Sequence record: OQ411014.1
Strand: one strand, 5' to 3'
From: Escherichia phage EJP2
Length of the DNA: 64,000 nucleotides
This document shows, piece after piece, positions 1 through 9,713 of the stretch. Under the pieces are notes generated by a model. That model saw only the letters and a program-made list of their open reading frames with translations. It was not told the origin of the DNA and did not search any database. The translations under genes and the position numbers were made by a program. The stretch's first letter is position 1, and the number at the start of each line of letters is the position of its first letter.

Positions 1-2157
1 ACGTGAAGCAGGTGGCTCATTGGTTGCATTACTAGTTGAGCGTCGTTTCGCTGTTGTTCTTCGTGGGATACGTTTAGAACCACGTTGTGCATATCCAGTA
101 CCGATACCACTTACCTTGCGAATGACAACCAAATCAGTACTGTCAACCGAACTTTGACTATCTGTAATTGGTGGAGCGTTCTTATTCGATACTTCACCCT
201 TAGTTAGTGACTTGCCAGCGGCATCTTCACCTTGTCCAGTGACTGTTGTGTAGAATAATCCAGGGTCAACTGTACCACTAAAGCCAAATAAGTTTGCAGA
301 ACGGGTTCTGACCTCAAAATTGAGCACTCCATTAACTGTACCAATTACTGCACCCTTTTGTACCATATCTTTATTGTACAAATTAGTACTGATACCGTAG
401 AATATACTCTTATAACCACTCTTATGTGTAATTACTAAACCATTCTTACCTACAGTTGTGATTAATCCACCATCAGGGGCAACTACATCACCTTTGGCTT
501 GAATAATCCAACCATTTCTGTTAGTTTGTGTTCCCTTATCAGTAGGTACTTGTTTACCCCAATAACCGAACTCACGAATAACACCACTCACAGGCATTAC
601 CATCTGTAATCCTTCAAATGTTTGTGGATATGTCATTTCTGATGGAGATTGTGTTAAATCTTGTGTCATTACTTCACCAACTTCTTCAGTAGTGTTTATG
701 AACTGAACTGCTTCTGTTTCCTGAACTGGAACAGTTTGAACTTCAACATCATTTGCTGGTTCTGGCTGTACTGGGTCAGTTGTTGAGCTTCTACCACCAC
801 CATTTACTGGAGGATTCATTGCATCACTATGGTTTTCTGCATCAGTGAACTGTGAGTGATAGTGGATGTGGTCATTAAGGCCAACACTAGGAGTTTTGAA
901 GTTTGGAGCCATAAATTCTGCACTTCCGTGGTTACCAGATGAATCAACTGTTAGTGTTTGTCCACCCCCACTAATATTAACTGTGGTTCCACCAATCAAG
1001 TTAGCAGATGTTTCACCTTTAATGGAAACAGTTGTTCCAGCAGTCATGTCCGTATTAGATCCACTCTGCATACGCAAAGATGCAGCAGTAACTAGACGTA
1101 AATCTGCTCCAACGTTAACAACTACCTGACCAGATACTTTAGTATCTAAAGAACCAAGCAATTCTAACTTAGTAGCTCCTGCTACACGCCAGTTCATATC
1201 TTTACCTACATCAAAGTTAACAGAACCTGTTGCATTGAAGTTAATGTCTTGACCAGAACGAATATTCACGTTCTTGTCACAATATAAATCAATATCACCA
1301 TCAGCAGTAAATTTAATACGAGCAGTACCATCGCGGTTAATCAAAAGAACGTCACCACTTGCTTCACTCAATAGTAATTGAGCACCACTACGAGTTCTTA
1401 GTACAATGCCTTCGTTTTTACGACCACCAACGGTTGTATCATTGACTGGGTTACTAAATTGGGTATCCTGATAACCATCTGGGTCATCAGCCCATGTAGG
1501 AGCATTCAATTCAGCATCTGTGTAGCCATCATCCAGAATAAAACTGTTTCCACGAGGTGAAGACATACCATAAACAGTACTGGTAGTTTGTCTAGTGGAA
1601 CTTCTGTTAGCAACACCTGCTTCTTCATCATATAGTAAGTTTTGTTTCTTCAATCCTTCAATCATTGGGACGTTTGGGTACTTTTCTTCACGATTTGTTT
1701 GAATTGTGTTACGATCATAGTCAGTTACTGGTACTGGCATGTCATGACCACTATTAGGCATCACTTCGGTTGCCATACCAGGAACCATTGTGTTCATACG
1801 CTCATCATATAGACATGCAAACCAATAAGCATCGAAAATACGACCTTGCTTAAAGCATACGGCAACTGTACAACCAACATCCGGTGGTACAGCCCAGAAT
1901 CCGTATCCTTTTGGGTACTGTTGATATGAGTTAGCTCCAGGAACACCCGGAGTTCTTCCTGCGAATGGGGCAAGATATCTTGCCTCAATCCATGAATCTT
2001 TAGAATCTCTGTCACTCTGAGAACCTTCAATCCAAACCTTTAGTTTCCCACTATGAGTTGGGTCACGGTTATCCATTACTGTAGCTAATTGGATAAATCT
2101 GGGGTCAAAACGTGCTAGTTGGTTTTCAGCGAACTGTTTACTGTTATTGGTCGCCAT
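1..2157 (-). CDS. Central tail spike / baseplate hub protein (gpV/gp5-like), partial: 3' end runs past window start
   Basis: Hand translation of the minus strand from ATG 2157 is open for 719 codons to position 1; this gene is absent from the ORF track because it has no stop in the window. N-terminal OB-fold-like motif (GYGFWAVPPDVGCTVAVCF), beta-helix-like G/V/I repeats, DHIHYH motif near 856-870, then a domain resembling an M23 peptidase fold around 300-560. Confidence 0.6.
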   Translation of the reverse strand, partial: MATNNSKQFAENQLARFDPRFIQLATVMDNRDPTHSGKLKVWIEGSQSDRDSKDSWIEARYLAPFAGRTPGVPGANSYQQYPKGYGFWAVPPDVGCTVAVCFKQGRIFDAYWFACLYDERMNTMVPGMATEVMPNSGHDMPVPVTDYDRNTIQTNREEKYPNVPMIEGLKKQNLLYDEEAGVANRSSTRQTTSTVYGMSSPRGNSFILDDGYTDAELNAPTWADDPDGYQDTQFSNPVNDTTVGGRKNEGIVLRTRSGAQLLLSEASGDVLLINRDGTARIKFTADGDIDLYCDKNVNIRSGQDINFNATGSVNFDVGKDMNWRVAGATKLELLGSLDTKVSGQVVVNVGADLRLVTAASLRMQSGSNTDMTAGTTVSIKGETSANLIGGTTVNISGGGQTLTVDSSGNHGSAEFMAPNFKTPSVGLNDHIHYHSQFTDAENHSDAMNPPVNGGGRSSTTDPVQPEPANDVEVQTVPVQETEAVQFINTTEEVGEVMTQDLTQSPSEMTYPQTFEGLQMVMPVSGVIREFGYWGKQVPTDKGTQTNRNGWIIQAKGDVVAPDGGLITTVGKNGLVITHKSGYKSIFYGISTNLYNKDMVQKGAVIGTVNGVLNFEVRTRSANLFGFSGTVDPGLFYTTVTGQGEDAAGKSLTKGEVSNKNAPPITDSQSSVDSTDLVVIRKVSGIGTGYAQRGSKRIPRRTTAKRRSTSNATNEPPASR

Positions 2158-4489
2158 TGCTTGCTGTTCCTTCATCATAATCAGTAGTTTGGTCACGACG
2201 ACGTAGTGAACGGATCACTAATCCACCAGTTAATTGCTGGGTGAACTTACCAGAACCATCAAATTCACTCACAACACTGTTTACACGGTAAATTGTTTGC
2301 GTGAAGATGGTTGGTGTGTCGATTTCCAAAATACCTGTGTTGTTACTAATAGCAACAACGGGTTTAATATTCAATAGTAGATATGCTTCACTGTCAATGT
2401 AGTTTGCGAAGTGAATATCGTCATCACCGACAGCCATTTCTTGGTCATTTACAACTCTATCAAGGTATTGTAGGTAAGAGTAGTCACTCCATCCCAACCA
2501 GTACGGATCACCAATAACCTTCATGTCCAATTTACCTAAGAATGCACGGTTATAGTAGTTGTCACGCATCAAACGACGATCCATTTCGTATTCAGTACTG
2601 TTATCGTTTACAGAACCACTGGTTGCTGTTACGATGTTTGTTGGTTCCAACGGAATTGACTTAACTTGTCCATTATCAGAGCCAATACCTTCAGTACCTG
2701 CATAAGTTAGGTCATATTCATCACGATAGTCTTCAATATATTCATTTACACGAGCGTGAACGTCCAAACGTGTCTCAAGTTGTTCCTTGACACCTTCAAT
2801 TGATAAACCTAGTTTATCAGAAGCGGCTGCGGTTGCATCACGTATGAATTGTTGCTCTTCATCTGATAGTGCACGACCTTCACGCTCATCTTTCTCCAAC
2901 TGAACCTTCTTTGACCACATTGCAGTTACGTTTGTGGTTACTGACGTATCATATCGAACATCATCGAGTACTAATATTTCAGCATTGTGAGTACCTAAAC
3001 GGTTGTCGAAGTCGATTTGTGTTGTTGGGTTACGTGTTACTGCTAAGTTGAATCCTTGGTCGAATTTAATATCCAGATTAAGAATTTCTTGGTTAAGACC
3101 TGTAAACTGATAGTCATAACGTTTAATATTCAATTTAGGAGTATTGTCATTTGGGTCTGCGAATTTATCTGCATTCTCAAAGAAGTATTCAATGTTGAAT
3201 TTGTCTTGCTTTAAGTCATCTTCACTAGTTACATCACCAATTTTATATTTTACAATATAGAAATCGTTTTTATAGACTGATGTATTACGAATATTATCAA
3301 ATCCGACATAACGACGAACTGGAATGATATTCACGAACTGACGTTTGCGGTCAGTACTTTCATGTAGAGGAACACAACAGTCCAGTACATCATCTATTGC
3401 ACGAGAGAATGGCACGTTAGCAGCCCAAGAGAAGTTCTTAGCACCTTGTTGACCATTCTTAGTATTACCAACTTCAGTACTTTGTTTAGCATCATAGTTG
3501 ATAGTCATAGTTGCTAGTTCAGAAGGAACATGAATAGTAAAGAATTCATTGTTTGCAAATTCTGGATATTTAAATGTTAAATAACCATACTGTTCTTCTG
3601 CTTGTTCATTTAGTTTATCCTGAATGCTTTGAAGAAAGTCACCAAAGGTTGCTGATGTGCATGTATATGGTTCTAGCATTGTCCAGTCTTTGTTATCAAC
3701 CAATGCAGTACGGTTTGCCACTAAATTCATGTCGTACTTAACAGTACCACCAGATTCAGTTGCACGACCTTTAATATCGTTAATCCTCACACACCATTTA
3801 CGGTTCAATCCAGTTATAGTTTCTGGTTTACCAGTATTTTGGTCATATCCAACGAAGTTCAATTCTAATACCATTGGCACGTCCATGAATTTTTGATATC
3901 CAAGACGGTTAGACATTACAACTATCTCATCCCATAAACTCATACCTGAGTCTTCTGAAATTTCAATAGTACATTCGTTGAATGAGAAGTTTGAAGTACT
4001 GGCTGGTGTCGCTGGTGCTACACTTTTGATTTTTACGTTAGTAATTGAATATCTTCCAGTTACCCCAGATTGTGCTATAATATATTTTGTAATTTGTTGG
4101 TTCGGTGATGACCAAAACAACGCATATTCTTCGGGTTCCATACTGTACAAAGAAAAGTTCCAAGTTACATTATGATACTTCAAAAGAATATTTTCATATG
4201 GTAGTACTATGTCGTTTAGGTTCCAGTCATTCTTAACTGACAAGTCATCAGTACTTCTAGCGTTAGTATTCTTTGGTCTTTCATCATTCGGTTTAGCACT
4301 AAATGGGTTAGAAATATTTGGCATTGCACCTTTAACCACATTAGTGACTTCTCCTTTGACAGTACTTTTTACTTTATCGATTGAAGGAATCTTACCTTTA
4401 ATTTCGGCAACTTTCTCTTGAGCAACTTCAACTGGTCTGTTGAGTTGGTCAACTGTAGCTGTAACGATTCCTTGTACATTATTTGCCAT
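2144..4489 (-). CDS. Large baseplate/tail structural protein (781 aa), function unassigned
   Basis: Long ORF directly upstream of the spike gene with a 14 nt overlap; beta-rich composition; no catalytic motif recognised. Confidence 0.5.
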   Translation of the reverse strand: MANNVQGIVTATVDQLNRPVEVAQEKVAEIKGKIPSIDKVKSTVKGEVTNVVKGAMPNISNPFSAKPNDERPKNTNARSTDDLSVKNDWNLNDIVLPYENILLKYHNVTWNFSLYSMEPEEYALFWSSPNQQITKYIIAQSGVTGRYSITNVKIKSVAPATPASTSNFSFNECTIEISEDSGMSLWDEIVVMSNRLGYQKFMDVPMVLELNFVGYDQNTGKPETITGLNRKWCVRINDIKGRATESGGTVKYDMNLVANRTALVDNKDWTMLEPYTCTSATFGDFLQSIQDKLNEQAEEQYGYLTFKYPEFANNEFFTIHVPSELATMTINYDAKQSTEVGNTKNGQQGAKNFSWAANVPFSRAIDDVLDCCVPLHESTDRKRQFVNIIPVRRYVGFDNIRNTSVYKNDFYIVKYKIGDVTSEDDLKQDKFNIEYFFENADKFADPNDNTPKLNIKRYDYQFTGLNQEILNLDIKFDQGFNLAVTRNPTTQIDFDNRLGTHNAEILVLDDVRYDTSVTTNVTAMWSKKVQLEKDEREGRALSDEEQQFIRDATAAASDKLGLSIEGVKEQLETRLDVHARVNEYIEDYRDEYDLTYAGTEGIGSDNGQVKSIPLEPTNIVTATSGSVNDNSTEYEMDRRLMRDNYYNRAFLGKLDMKVIGDPYWLGWSDYSYLQYLDRVVNDQEMAVGDDDIHFANYIDSEAYLLLNIKPVVAISNNTGILEIDTPTIFTQTIYRVNSVVSEFDGSGKFTQQLTGGLVIRSLRRRDQTTDYDEGTASNGDQ

Positions 4490-5668: not shown

Positions 5669-6532
5669 ATGATAAACACTAAGCCGAAGCGTAAGAAGTA
5701 TTTGAATAACGCTGACTTACTAAGAGAGATACACATAAGTAAAATGTCGTATTGCTATCTGCTAGATCGTGCTTATAGTATGTATGACTACATAGTTTTT
5801 GATGAATCCGAAATCACTGAAGAAATCTTAGAAAAGGCTTCAGCGGCTCGAATCAAACGACTAAACAATGAAGCGATTGACAAGATTCGCGTAAAAGATG
5901 GACTATCAGCTAAGAAAGCGAAAGAACAAGCTGAAAGTTTAGGTGTAGTATTGAGTACTGTACCACAAGATGAAGTAGTGATTCGTGTAATCACCGATGA
6001 ACATATCCCTTTCGATGCTTCCAACAAGAAAGGTGAGAAGTTCCGAGTAAACTTTGAACCATTCAAACACTACATCGTTGATGATTGTGGAGAGATAGTT
6101 GAAGTTGGTCGGTCACATTGGCGTGGTGATTTAGAAAACGGTGAGTTCTCAATGGACCACGGTCGAATTACAAATGAACTCGGTAAAATGTTTATCAAAC
6201 TTGCTGAACAGATTTCACACAAGACTAACTATAGACGTTATACGTACTTGGATGAAATGATGGGCGATGCTCGTGTTCAACTAGTCAAGAATGCTCTTCT
6301 CTTCAAAGAAAGTATTCTGTACAAAAAAGTGAAACCTGCTGTGCAGTTGAATCCCTTTTCATATTATACATCGTTTGTTAACAACGCGTTTCGTTCAGTA
6401 CTGAATGCTGAAAAGAATGTACGTAACATCCGTGATGATTTGTTGGAATTGAATGGCTTTAACCCAAGTCATACTCGTCAACTAGAAATCGAAATTCAAA
6501 TGCAAGAAAGGAAAAACAATGGCACTATTTGA
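5669..6532 (+). CDS. Putative late-transcription sigma factor (gp55-like), extended form
   Basis: N-terminus KPKRKKYLNNADLLREI resembles the T4 gp55 N-terminus as recalled; sits directly upstream of the gp47/gp46-like pair as in T4; 287 aa is longer than T4 gp55. Confidence 0.4.
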   Translation: MINTKPKRKKYLNNADLLREIHISKMSYCYLLDRAYSMYDYIVFDESEITEEILEKASAARIKRLNNEAIDKIRVKDGLSAKKAKEQAESLGVVLSTVPQDEVVIRVITDEHIPFDASNKKGEKFRVNFEPFKHYIVDDCGEIVEVGRSHWRGDLENGEFSMDHGRITNELGKMFIKLAEQISHKTNYRRYTYLDEMMGDARVQLVKNALLFKESILYKKVKPAVQLNPFSYYTSFVNNAFRSVLNAEKNVRNIRDDLLELNGFNPSHTRQLEIEIQMQERKNNGTI

Positions 6533-7553
6533 TAAAGCAGTTACTTTTACAGATATTCATCTTGGTCTAAAGAACAACAGTAAAGAACACAACGAAGATT
6601 GTTTGAACTTCGTGAAGTTCATGATTGCTGAAGCGAAGAAACAAAATATACGTACTTGCATCTTTATGGGAGATTTCTTCCATAATAGAAGCAACGTAAA
6701 CATAAGTACTTTGAACTATGGTTTGGAAGTTATGAAACTTCTAAACGAGAACTTCGATAAAGTATATTTTCTTGTCGGGAACCACGATATGTACCACAAG
6801 AACAAACGTGACATTACCAGTATCAATATGGCACAGGCGTTCGAGAACATACATTTCGTGAATGAGATGGAAACTATTGATGATTGCACTTTCATTCCTT
6901 TTATGATTGATGACGAATACACAAAGTTACCATCTCTACGAAGCAAATACGTTTTTGGTCACTTAGAATTACCTGGATACCTCTTGAATAAAATGGTCGA
7001 AATGCCTAACCACGGTAAAGAGACTCAAGAGTCATTCAATGGTTGTGAATACGTCTTTAGTGGACACTTCCATAAACGACAATCTAAAATTACACCAAGC
7101 GGTACTAAGGTACTGTACACTGGAAACTGTTTTCCACATGACTTTTCTGATACATGGGATGATGCACGTGGTATTATGATTCTTGAACACGGTAAAGACC
7201 CATATTTTGTTGCTTGGGATAAAGCACCGAAGTATAGAACCTTTACTTTGTCTGAACTTCTGTCTGACCCATCATATTACGTCCAAGATGATGTAATTGC
7301 TAAAGTTCAAATTGATATTCCTGTTACTATGGATGAGATTAGTTACATTCGTGAACTATTCAGTACTATTCATAATATCAGAGAGTTCAACGTAGTAACG
7401 AACAAGAAAGCAGTGATGGATGATGTTGAGAAGATGGTGGATTCATCTGAAGGGACTGAAACAGTCGATGAGATTGTACTACGTCAAATCAGTGAAATTG
7501 ATTCACCAATATTCGACAAGAATCTACTAATGCAAATTTACACATCACTATAA
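6519..7553 (+). CDS. Mre11/SbcD-like recombination nuclease (T4 gp47-like)
   Basis: N-terminal FTDIHLG phosphoesterase motif, GDFFH, GNHD; 344 aa; followed by the Rad50-like partner. Confidence 0.8.
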   Translation: MALFDKAVTFTDIHLGLKNNSKEHNEDCLNFVKFMIAEAKKQNIRTCIFMGDFFHNRSNVNISTLNYGLEVMKLLNENFDKVYFLVGNHDMYHKNKRDITSINMAQAFENIHFVNEMETIDDCTFIPFMIDDEYTKLPSLRSKYVFGHLELPGYLLNKMVEMPNHGKETQESFNGCEYVFSGHFHKRQSKITPSGTKVLYTGNCFPHDFSDTWDDARGIMILEHGKDPYFVAWDKAPKYRTFTLSELLSDPSYYVQDDVIAKVQIDIPVTMDEISYIRELFSTIHNIREFNVVTNKKAVMDDVEKMVDSSEGTETVDEIVLRQISEIDSPIFDKNLLMQIYTSL

Positions 7554-7568
7554 TCAAGGAGAGCACGG

Positions 7569-9713
7569 ATGCTTACAATCAAGAATATTACAATGAGAAA
7601 CTTTTTCTCCTTTGGGAATGCACCACAGACTGTAGTACTGGATAGTACTGATATATCCTTAGTTCTGGGTCAGAACAATGATGTACTTCTCGATGGAGCA
7701 GACAATTCCGGTCGTCGTAATGGGGTGGGTAAATCTGCCCTCATTCAAGGCATCGTATATGGTCTGTATGGTAAAAGTATCGGTAATGATATCAAGATTT
7801 CTAACTTGGTGAATAAAATCAACACTAAGAACTGTGAAGTATTCTTAGAGTTCAGTAAAGATGGTGTTGATTATCGAGTTGAGCGTGGGCGTAGCCCAAC
7901 GTATTTCAACTTCATCACCATGAATCAGGATAAAGCTGATGATGAATCTCGTGGTGAGAAGAAAGATACCCAAGAAGATCTAATTGAAGTTCTTGGTATC
8001 TCGCAACAATTGTTTGAACACATTGTAGTACTGAATGCTAACGTTGAGCCGTTCTTGTCATTGCCTGTTATCAAACAGCGTGATATGATTGAAGAACTTC
8101 TTGGTATTACTCAACTAACCGAGAAAGCTGAACTACTAAAGGACATGCATAAAGAATCGAAACGTCAAGCTGAACAAGAAAAGTTCAAGATTGAAACTAT
8201 TACTGCTTCGAACGAGCGTATCCAGCAGAGTATTTCTATTCTCCAGGATCAAGCCGCTGCGTTTGAGAAAGCTAAGTCTGAAAAGATTGATAGTATCCAA
8301 TCTAAGCTGGTGGATTTTGAGGGAGTTGATTTTGCTAACTTATTTGAAGTTGCGACTAAGAATGAGATGGCTAAACAATGTAATGCAGACAGAGCAGTTC
8401 TTGAAGGTCGAGTGAATACACTTGCTCAGAAATATCAAGACTACGATGCACAGTTAGTTGCAAATAAAGAGTTGATTCAACAAAGCATCCAAGAATTGAA
8501 CACTATTGACATTGTTCAGGAATTGAGTAACCACAATGAATTATCTTCGTGGTTAGAATTGGAGAAGATTCTAAAAGAATCATTGAGTACTAAGAAATTC
8601 AAGGAACAACAGATCAGTACTGCTGAACGTAACTTGAATATGCTAAAAAGTACTTTAGCAAAAGAAGAAAGTTCACTCCAAGATGTTCTTGATAACAAAT
8701 GTTCTCTATGTAAGGGTAATCTAGACCATGATGAAAATCATAAAACTCTAAAAGAGAAAGTACTAAGTTCGATTCAATCACTAAAGGAAGAGATTTCAGT
8801 TGTGGAATTGCAGATTAGTGCAACCGTAGCAGAAATTGATGCTTTGGAGATATTTGACTTGCCAGCTAAACCAGTTACAGTGTATCCTACATTGTCTGGT
8901 GCACAACTTCATGAACATAAACTAGCTGAATTAGTAAAACAGTTAGATGAAGTACAGGTCAATATCTATGAAGAAGAGTTACAGAATTCATATGCTAAGT
9001 TAGCAGAGACACCAGTACTGGAAGTACTAGATTGGTATAGTGTTCAAGAAGTTACTGAATTGAATTTCATGTTCGATGGACTAAAGTCTGATTTAGAACG
9101 AGAAATGAAGTCTGAGAATCACTTCGTATCTCAAATTGAGACACTAAAAACTACATCTCTACAAGCTGTATCGTATGATGAGTTCAATGAGTTCGATAAG
9201 TTGGCTAATCACCAAGAATTCTTGGCTAAATTGCTAATCAATAAGGACTCTTATGTTCGTAAACGTATCATTGAACAGAATATCTCGTTCTTGAATACAC
9301 GTTTACAGTACTATATCGATGCTGTTGGTTCATCTCATCAGGTAGTATTCATGAATGACCTAAGTGTTGATATTACATTGAATGACCAGACCTATGACTT
9401 CAAACAATTGTCTCGTGGTGAGCGTACTAGGGTTAACATTGCGTTATCCTTAGCATTCCGTGATACCTATGAGTCTCTATACCAAGCAATTAACCTCATT
9501 TGTATTGATGAGATGATTGATGTTGGTCTTGATAGTTCTGGTGTAATGAAAACGTGGACAATATTCCAAGATCTTGCAGCTATTCGTAACAAGAACGTAT
9601 TTGTCATCTCTCATAGAGAGGAATTACTCAGTAAAACTGACAAGATACTCAAGATTACGAAAGAAGCTGGATTTAGTTCAGTTGCTTATACAACATTGGA
9701 TGATTTTTTCTAA
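7569..9713 (+). CDS. Rad50/SbcC-like ATPase (T4 gp46-like)
   Basis: Walker A NGVGKSALIQ at N-terminus, long coiled-coil middle, C-terminal signature/Walker B region (LSRGERTRVNIALSLA ... LICIDEMID). Confidence 0.8.
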   Translation: MLTIKNITMRNFFSFGNAPQTVVLDSTDISLVLGQNNDVLLDGADNSGRRNGVGKSALIQGIVYGLYGKSIGNDIKISNLVNKINTKNCEVFLEFSKDGVDYRVERGRSPTYFNFITMNQDKADDESRGEKKDTQEDLIEVLGISQQLFEHIVVLNANVEPFLSLPVIKQRDMIEELLGITQLTEKAELLKDMHKESKRQAEQEKFKIETITASNERIQQSISILQDQAAAFEKAKSEKIDSIQSKLVDFEGVDFANLFEVATKNEMAKQCNADRAVLEGRVNTLAQKYQDYDAQLVANKELIQQSIQELNTIDIVQELSNHNELSSWLELEKILKESLSTKKFKEQQISTAERNLNMLKSTLAKEESSLQDVLDNKCSLCKGNLDHDENHKTLKEKVLSSIQSLKEEISVVELQISATVAEIDALEIFDLPAKPVTVYPTLSGAQLHEHKLAELVKQLDEVQVNIYEEELQNSYAKLAETPVLEVLDWYSVQEVTELNFMFDGLKSDLEREMKSENHFVSQIETLKTTSLQAVSYDEFNEFDKLANHQEFLAKLLINKDSYVRKRIIEQNISFLNTRLQYYIDAVGSSHQVVFMNDLSVDITLNDQTYDFKQLSRGERTRVNIALSLAFRDTYESLYQAINLICIDEMIDVGLDSSGVMKTWTIFQDLAAIRNKNVFVISHREELLSKTDKILKITKEAGFSSVAYTTLDDFF

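Follow-up and report, generated by a model that had tools for sequence, protein, structure and literature searches.

The first 2,157 nucleotides (nt) of the 64,000-nt stretch of Escherichia phage EJP2 DNA that was analysed here (sequence record OQ411014.1; the whole stretch is referred to as the window) contain, on the minus strand, most of a gene which with high confidence encodes the central spike, i.e. the cell-puncturing device, of a Rak2/PBECO4/GAP32-like jumbo myophage. The encoded protein combines an N-terminal OB-fold, a triple-stranded β-helix, an H-x-H motif where the helix ends, a LytM/M23-fold domain devoid of its metal ligands (termed dLytM) and, beyond the edge of the window, a GH24 lysozyme. 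The overall best explanation, to which we assign a probability of about 60%, is a trimeric central spike with a histidine cage at the H-x-H motif and with tethered dLytM-lysozyme modules, in which the dLytM domain may serve as an adaptor.

The family as such is already annotated and its odd layout is already in print (PMC5259590). Buttimer et al. (2017) described an N-terminal gp5 OB-fold and a C-terminal lysozyme in the homolog of phage CBB (PMC5259590) and discussed for the Rak2-like phages a domain order different from that of T4 together with a possible central M23 domain (PMC5259590). An earlier reading of the letters of the window (referred to as the original prediction) had emphasised a layout unlike that of gp5. 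This was borne out insofar as the GH24 lysozyme is located C-terminal to the helix, whereas the novelty ascribed to it was over-rated, the domain order having been remarked on before (PMC5259590). What appears to be new are modest details, namely the uniformly degenerate M23 module and the mid-chain position of the H-x-H apex motif ahead of a long enzymatic tail. Our literature search brought up no description of the lost M23 ligands or of a mid-chain H-x-H in Rak2-like spikes, and no structure of any Rak2-like baseplate.

Starting from the ATG at position 2157 the minus-strand frame continues for 719 codons without a stop codon and reaches the edge of the window. The original prediction had expected that more domains may follow there and had proposed to retrieve the remainder of the gene. 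This was achieved via a contig with a DNA identity of 99% to the window (22 mismatches in 2175 nt) encoding a homologous protein of 903 amino acids (aa), P0001, which is present in two public assemblies and differs from the window protein in two of 719 residues. Its additional part was indeed found to contain a GH24 lysozyme. P0001 was used for the missing C-terminus; its numbering corresponds to that of the window protein plus six. An AAGGA stands about 10 nt before the ATG at 2157, and this start is consistent with the N-termini of the homologs including that of PBECO4. An in-frame ATG at 2175, which is chosen by gene callers, is without an obvious ribosome-binding site. Both start codons overlap the stop codon (2144-2146) of the upstream gene encoding a protein of 781 aa.

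The profile of PHROG 13211 matches the window protein end to end with an E-value of 0, so that the observation is not due to chance. The closest isolated phage is Erwinia phage Hallingskeid, whose spike shares an identity of 78%, while the homologs of coliphages share approximately 66%; the DNA flanking the spike gene is syntenic with that of Hallingskeid. Spike homologs are encoded by phages with hosts as diverse as Enterobacteria, Vibrio, Pseudomonas and Xanthomonas. All conservation counts given below refer to 94 relatives with identities between 35 and 100%. Two homologs have been detected in virions by mass spectrometry, CBB_240 of phage CBB (PMC5259590) and gp241 of phage phAPEC6 with a mass of 95.9 kDa (PMC7247149).

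The OB-fold, which had been proposed on the basis of a gpV/gp5-type signature, corresponds to PF04717 (Phage_base_V) with a score of 25.9 bits, i.e. above the Pfam cut-off of 23.8 bits, and the PBECO4 homolog reaches 29.8 bits. The following region (residues 120-249) has a mean column entropy of 1.04, which equals that of the OB-fold and is the lowest among the regions compared; it has no Pfam match and no family assignment. The β-helix-like repeats noted in the original prediction could be matched to known helices by a family profile covering residues 249-469. With E-values from 2e-5 to 1e-3 this profile detected VgrG (9gtr, 2e-5; 8gra, 1e-4), helix fragments of T4 gp5 and the phage central spikes 8kea and 9f4a. 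Furthermore, DUF2345 was detected in the PBECO4 homolog with 34.7 bits (cut-off 30.7). The top matches of the helix profile, the designer propellers “Cake” and “Scone”, were rejected as they reflect a repeated “INRDGT”-like word and not homology. The features of the central-spike class, an OB-fold followed by a triple-stranded β-helix, are present, and the protein is presumably trimeric.

The DHIHYH motif (residues 429-434, nt 856-873) was found at the place where the original prediction had located it (about 856-870), and its H-x-H stands exactly where the helix homology stops. H430 and H432 are invariant in all 94 relatives, whereas H434 is conserved in 71 and H443 in 82 of them; among the versions of the motif in relatives are DHTHKH and KHIHPAGG. 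Work on the spike of phage P2 has established an H-x-H after the helix as the signature of the iron-caging Apex domain, and in P2 gpV the cage is formed by His197 and His199, with the C-terminus 12 residues away. The cage sequence of gpV (KVL-H-T-H-K-H-PGDSGG) and the EJP2 sequence (GLND-H-I-H-Y-H) follow a similar pattern, which supports an apex-like histidine cage. Motif, position and conservation together make a real histidine-cage apex moderately probable, with putative iron binding and a putative apex geometry.

A single-sequence search against the PDB also aligned HIHYH with the last residues of VgrG1 (4uhv), a match that was rejected as an artefact because the aligned part is the C-terminal LEHHHHHH purification tag of the construct. 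The tag match (window 856-873, minus strand) represents a false positive that is able to mislead automated annotation.

The M23-like string GLVITHKSGYKSIFYGISTNLY...KGAVIGTVNGVLNFEVR, from which a lysostaphin/LytM-like segment had been predicted, is located at residues 574-617. The window sequence scores 22.5 and 24.0 bits against PF01551, i.e. below the gathering score of 28.7, so that the M23 call is weak by itself; it is secure at the family level, since PF01551 is matched by 33 of 36 diverse relatives (E ≤ 0.01) with a best E-value of 7e-11. According to a search against the PDB the domain profile is similar to LasA (5e-7), SpoIIQ (1e-6) and DipM (5e-5), and also to EnvC. The AlphaFold (AF2) model of residues 499-659 has a predicted local distance difference test score (pLDDT) of 91.9, and a Foldseek search with the domain model retrieved LytM/M23 folds only, led by DipM, PrgK-LytM, SpoIIQ, LasA and EnvC. 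The profile similarity to M23/LytM proteins that the original prediction called for was thus found, and both approaches place the segment among these folds.

Based on the active-site register taken from the alignments with LasA and SpoIIQ, the equivalents of the HxxxD motif are R547 and I551, that of the catalytic His is G588 and those of the M23 H-x-H are V611 and N613. The replacement of ligand positions by G, V and N, as read from the window sequence, is therefore exact and extends to the HxxxD motif. Two or more of the canonical ligand or catalytic residues were found in none of the 94 relatives and exactly one in eight of them; no relative with an intact M23 site, as a sign of recent decay, was detected among them. 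Within the domain the five former ligand columns rank 54, 68, 93, 96 and 115 of 116 by conservation. The scaffold, in contrast, is invariant at MPxxG, GYWG, G549-W550, H578, G581, E615, R617 and GFxGTVDPGxF, and the overall conservation of the domain is on a par with that of the lysozyme (entropy 1.45 versus 1.40). Taking into account that scaffold and domain are conserved and the ligand columns variable, selection acts on the fold but not on the former active site. The domain is a degenerate LytM domain and not a peptidase.

An exhaustive search among 1.84 billion cluster representatives revealed this dLytM subtype in only seven clusters of spikes with 870-984 aa. After these clusters the E-values jump from about 1e-40 to 1e-16 (approximately 24 orders of magnitude), the nearest non-spike relatives being ordinary bacterial M23 proteins. 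In phages, modules with an M23 fold are frequent among tape measures, internal proteins and hubs.

The catalytic part of the protein is provided by the C-terminal GH24 domain. PF00959 was identified in the PBECO4 homolog with 45.2 bits, and the family profile of the C-terminal approximately 160 residues matches T4 lysozyme with an E-value of about 1e-20. The catalytic Glu of the lysozyme is present in 93 of the 94 relatives, and so is the catalytic Asp. Directly downstream of the spike gene a stand-alone GH24 lysozyme of 162 aa is encoded (L003 8746-9234, outside the window). It shares 45% identity with the C-terminal domain of the spike, and identity and adjoining position point to a tandem duplication. 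The homolog of this smaller lysozyme was not detected in CBB virions (PMC5259590), and expression of another homolog, LysUE1, has yielded an active lysozyme (PMC12805682).

The domains are connected by two linkers of different composition. The tract of residues 433-521, which contains the acidic linker noted in the original prediction, comprises 15 Asp/Glu versus one Lys/Arg, and the second linker (residues 637-719) contains 17 Lys/Arg versus eight Asp/Glu. Structure prediction of the full-length protein, as originally suggested, yielded an AlphaFold model with a pLDDT of 78, in which ordered domains are parted by the low-confidence stretches 508-516, 669-673 and 710-725 (P0001 numbering). The latter is the basic SKRIPRRTTAKRR segment with a pLDDT of 33-50. 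The elements predicted in the acidic linker, a strand (E485-493) and a helix (H497-507, both in P0001 numbering), have a pLDDT of 77-85. Ordered elements of fair confidence are present inside both linkers (P0001 485-507 and 683-690; window approximately 655-723 and 106-129, minus strand), and a pairing among them or with the dLytM domain is conceivable.

In the proposed mechanism the needle would be closed, like that of P2 gpV, by a cage of histidines (probably with iron) contributed by the three H-x-H copies of the trimer. The chains would exit the apex sideways, and each spike would tether three dLytM-lysozyme modules. Sheath contraction would then drive the needle across the outer membrane, and the lysozyme as the sole catalytic wall-cutting activity would locally open the peptidoglycan for the tail tube. 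As a non-catalytic adaptor, the dead LytM domain would most likely bind peptidoglycan or dock and hold the lysozyme module. Such an adaptor role is suggested because inactivated hydrolase folds bind or regulate in other baseplates and in bacterial LytM factors. In phage 812 a dead CHAP “clip” domain acts as lid and clip (PMC13433997), and among the inactive LytM domains, which regulate or bind autolysins (PMC10336132), that of DipM binds glycan-cleaving enzymes as well as amidases (PMC10336132). By this analogy a binding or docking role of the dLytM domain is put forward tentatively.

Several points weigh against this explanation. The usual apex criterion expects the H-x-H within approximately 12-25 residues of the C-terminus; about 470 residues come after it in the full-length protein, and the motif therefore lies far outside this range. 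The motif is furthermore short, the helix-profile search gave no sequence-level match to the apex structures of gpV or gp138, and the apex geometry and the chain path after the H-x-H are putative. The published virion proteomes give no peptide positions for or against the presence of the C-terminal half on the mature spike. The variability of the former groove argues against a conserved groove-bound ligand and weakens the case for a specific binding of peptidoglycan peptides. In addition, H-x-H iron sites are known to occur mid-fibre, away from the tips, where they clamp the register of the trimer. The H-x-H of EJP2 might likewise be an internal register clamp, or the protein might be a precursor that is cleaved after the motif, the true tip being a PAAR-like protein or being exposed after removal of the C-terminus. 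T4 gp5 is matured by cleavage, and besides the long C-terminal part of the EJP2 spike the roughly 100 residues that still follow the H-x-H in enzyme-less relatives would fit such a scenario. It seems unlikely, however, since the motif is located exactly at the end of the helix homology and resembles the H-T-H-K-H of gpV, and since no PAAR-like gene was identified beside the spike gene within the 15-kb locus (the approximately 350-kb genome was not searched for a PAAR/gp5.4-like tip). Moreover, the phAPEC6 protein was listed at its full predicted mass with seven peptides, the positions of which were not given (PMC7247149).

Regarding the dLytM domain, it may lack a role at the cell wall and instead dock as a structural module, keeping the C-terminal cargo packed on the β-helix or the baseplate before firing. 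From a permuted domain order this would recreate the spatial arrangement of T4 gp5, with the lysozymes around the top of the needle, and might mask the lysozyme. The linker of about 65 residues between the apex end and the domain could run back along the helix of approximately 100 Å (estimated from the dimensions of T4 gp5), and the strand and helix elements predicted by AF2 inside both linkers, the restriction of the dLytM subtype to this spike family and the lid and clip function of the dead CHAP domain of phage 812 (PMC13433997) are in line with it. Such packing is putative, however, and related spikes carry an M15, SLT or GH108 enzyme but no dLytM domain, so that the latter is not needed for enzyme carriage; we regard this alternative as rather improbable. 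A function as an EnvC/NlpD/DipM-type activator, which would reach the periplasm on the spike and switch on the host amidases AmiA/B/C or lytic transglycosylases, or else would activate or de-repress a phage GH24 (the fused domain or the 162-aa paralog), appears less probable again. The domain resembles EnvC, NlpD and DipM in lacking the ligands while its fold is under purifying selection, and the range of partners bound by DipM (PMC10336132) would accommodate a glycan-cleaving enzyme. One GH24 is available in cis and the 45%-identical stand-alone enzyme is encoded next door. EnvC uses groove-centre positions for activation. These positions are, however, among the most variable columns in the EJP2 family, and the hosts, from Enterobacteria to Vibrio, Pseudomonas and Xanthomonas, have differing amidase sets. 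Very unlikely, in our estimate, is the far-reaching version in which the spike would deliver a virion-borne activator of murein hydrolases, an EnvC/NlpD/DipM mimic acting on host hydrolases or phage GH24s at the penetration site; if true, the phage would rely in part on a takeover of the host's autolysin control to get through the wall. In a weaker version the spike would be a phage counterpart of an “evolved VgrG” that unites an iron-cage apex with C-terminal enzymatic cargo. A residual endopeptidase activity with unconventional metal ligands such as H578, E615 and D631 (P0001 H584, E621 and D637) would be compatible with the near invariance of these residues. Their equivalents, however, belong to the general M23 signature (DHG, FE-I/V-R, vDP) and are non-ligands according to the Pfam consensus and the LasA and SpoIIQ alignments. 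With the canonical positions highly variable, no relative retaining two of these residues, and all characterised LytM domains without them being inactive (PMC10336132), residual catalysis is extremely improbable.

Table 1. Features of the EJP2 spike gene and its product (positions refer to the window, residues to the window protein unless stated otherwise).
Feature	Position	Strand	Basis or remark
Partial gene of the baseplate central spike / tail lysozyme (719 codons out of 897-903)	1..2157	-	3' end beyond the window
N-terminal OB-fold, residues ~18-119; part docking the spike on hub and tube tip	1801..2106	-	PF04717
Conserved middle region between OB-fold and helix, residues 120-249	1411..1800	-	Family alignment
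Triple-stranded β-helix region, residues 250-420	898..1410	-	Profile matches; AF2 pLDDT 84-91
Putative apex, residues 421-454, with H430-I-H432-Y-H434 (nt 856-870) and conserved N-H443-S	796..897	-	Conservation; likeness to gpV
Acidic, Pro-rich linker, residues 455-520, with predicted ordered strand and helix (residues 479-501)	598..795	-	AF2; composition
Degenerate LytM/M23-fold domain, residues 521-636	250..597	-	Profile, AF2, Foldseek, alignment
Start of second linker, residues 637-719, with predicted strand DLVVIRKV and disordered basic stretch SKRIPRRTTAKRR	1..249	-	AF2; composition
GH24 (T4-type) lysozyme domain, P0001 ~741-903	Off window, after basic linker		PF00959 in homologs; profile

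The spike gene is part of a baseplate gene cluster. Upstream of it the window encodes the virion protein of 781 aa, a gp53-like wedge protein of 103 aa and a virion protein of 251 aa, and on the recovered contig the stand-alone GH24 lysozyme is followed by gp25, a wedge-like protein of 1153 aa and a giant protein of 3344 aa. The gene of the 781-aa protein (2144-4489, minus strand) adjoins the spike gene. No match was obtained for its product in Pfam, NCBIfam or by sequence in the PDB, and its homolog in phAPEC6, gp240, has been detected in virions (PMC7247149); the protein may be the hub. PHROG 11190 files it under “head and packaging” despite its position in the baseplate cluster. Genes for a late sigma factor and for an SbcCD-like pair of nucleases (5669-9713, plus strand) lie near the baseplate genes, as in Hallingskeid. 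No tRNA genes were identified within the 64-kb window.

The architecture of the EJP2 spike implies that a permuted alternative to the solution realised in T4 gp5, a needle combined with a lysozyme, is widespread among giant phages. More distant spikes of jumbo phages share the chassis of OB-fold and helix and end in an M15, SLT or GH108 hydrolase or without any enzyme, so that one chassis accepts interchangeable C-terminal wall hydrolases (GH24, M15, SLT, GH108). Several of these distant spikes keep GLNDH-x-H, and the enzyme-less ones have about 100 residues after the H-x-H. Conserved motifs containing Cys and His residues were observed in the distant spikes P0097, P0098, P0101, P0105, P0112, P0115, P0118 and P0120: “MPT[HQ]EPW..H” is located between the helix and the M15, SLT or GH108 enzyme, and “T[FY]EPCP[ED]H” at the C-terminus of the enzyme-less spikes.

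The Rak2-like clade has long retained, down to 35% identity, a peptidase fold whose catalysis was lost. The EJP2-type dLytM domain therefore represents a clean natural case for the role of inactivated hydrolase domains in virions, be it binding, docking or regulation; the candidate roles of this dead domain are peptidoglycan binding, docking and hydrolase regulation. The spike also bears on the question of how an H-x-H apex coexists with a long C-terminal extension. With respect to annotation, the M23 module should not be named a peptidase, the catalytic part being the lysozyme.

Compared with known systems, the spikes of the Rak2-like phages (PBECO4 gp534, the GAP32 gp, CBB_240, phAPEC6 gp241 and Hallingskeid CDS0423) belong to the same family end to end with identities of 66-78%. 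They have the same gene neighbours and show no architectural difference from the EJP2 protein.

Similar to the EJP2 spike, T4 gp5 unites an OB-fold, a triple-β-helix needle and a GH24 lysozyme in one chain and serves the puncture of the envelope and the local digestion of peptidoglycan. In T4 gp5, however, the lysozyme is inserted between OB-fold and helix, i.e. at the position of the middle region of the EJP2 spike; neither an M23 domain nor an H-x-H is present, and the tip is formed by the separate PAAR-like protein gp5.4. In EJP2 the lysozyme is C-terminal to the helix, which itself ends in the H-x-H. The spikes P2 gpV and phi92 gp138 share with EJP2 the OB-fold, the β-helix and an H-x-H(-x-H) directly after the helix, which reads L-H-T-H-K-H in gpV and D-H-I-H-Y-H in EJP2. 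While gpV ends 12 residues past the cage, the EJP2 chain continues for about 470 residues with two linkers and two domains.

The domain conforms to the definition of a LytM factor in having a LytM fold with its metal ligands lost. The LytM domains of EnvC, NlpD, DipM, SpoIIQ and PrgK belong to bacterial periplasmic, division or secretion proteins, whereas that of EJP2 is part of a phage spike and fused to a muramidase. Unlike in a LytM factor that binds its partners in the former groove, this groove is not conserved in the EJP2 domain, and partner binding is putative. In evolved VgrG spikes such as VgrG-3 of V. cholerae, extensions follow the helix without an H-x-H. In phi29 gp13, which is not a β-helical spike, a lysozyme and an active M23 domain are combined at the tail tip, and phage A-1(L) carries lysozyme and peptidase on the hub and not on the spike. 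The spike of phage 812 has C-terminal enzyme domains including a GlpQ-like petal (PMC13433997).

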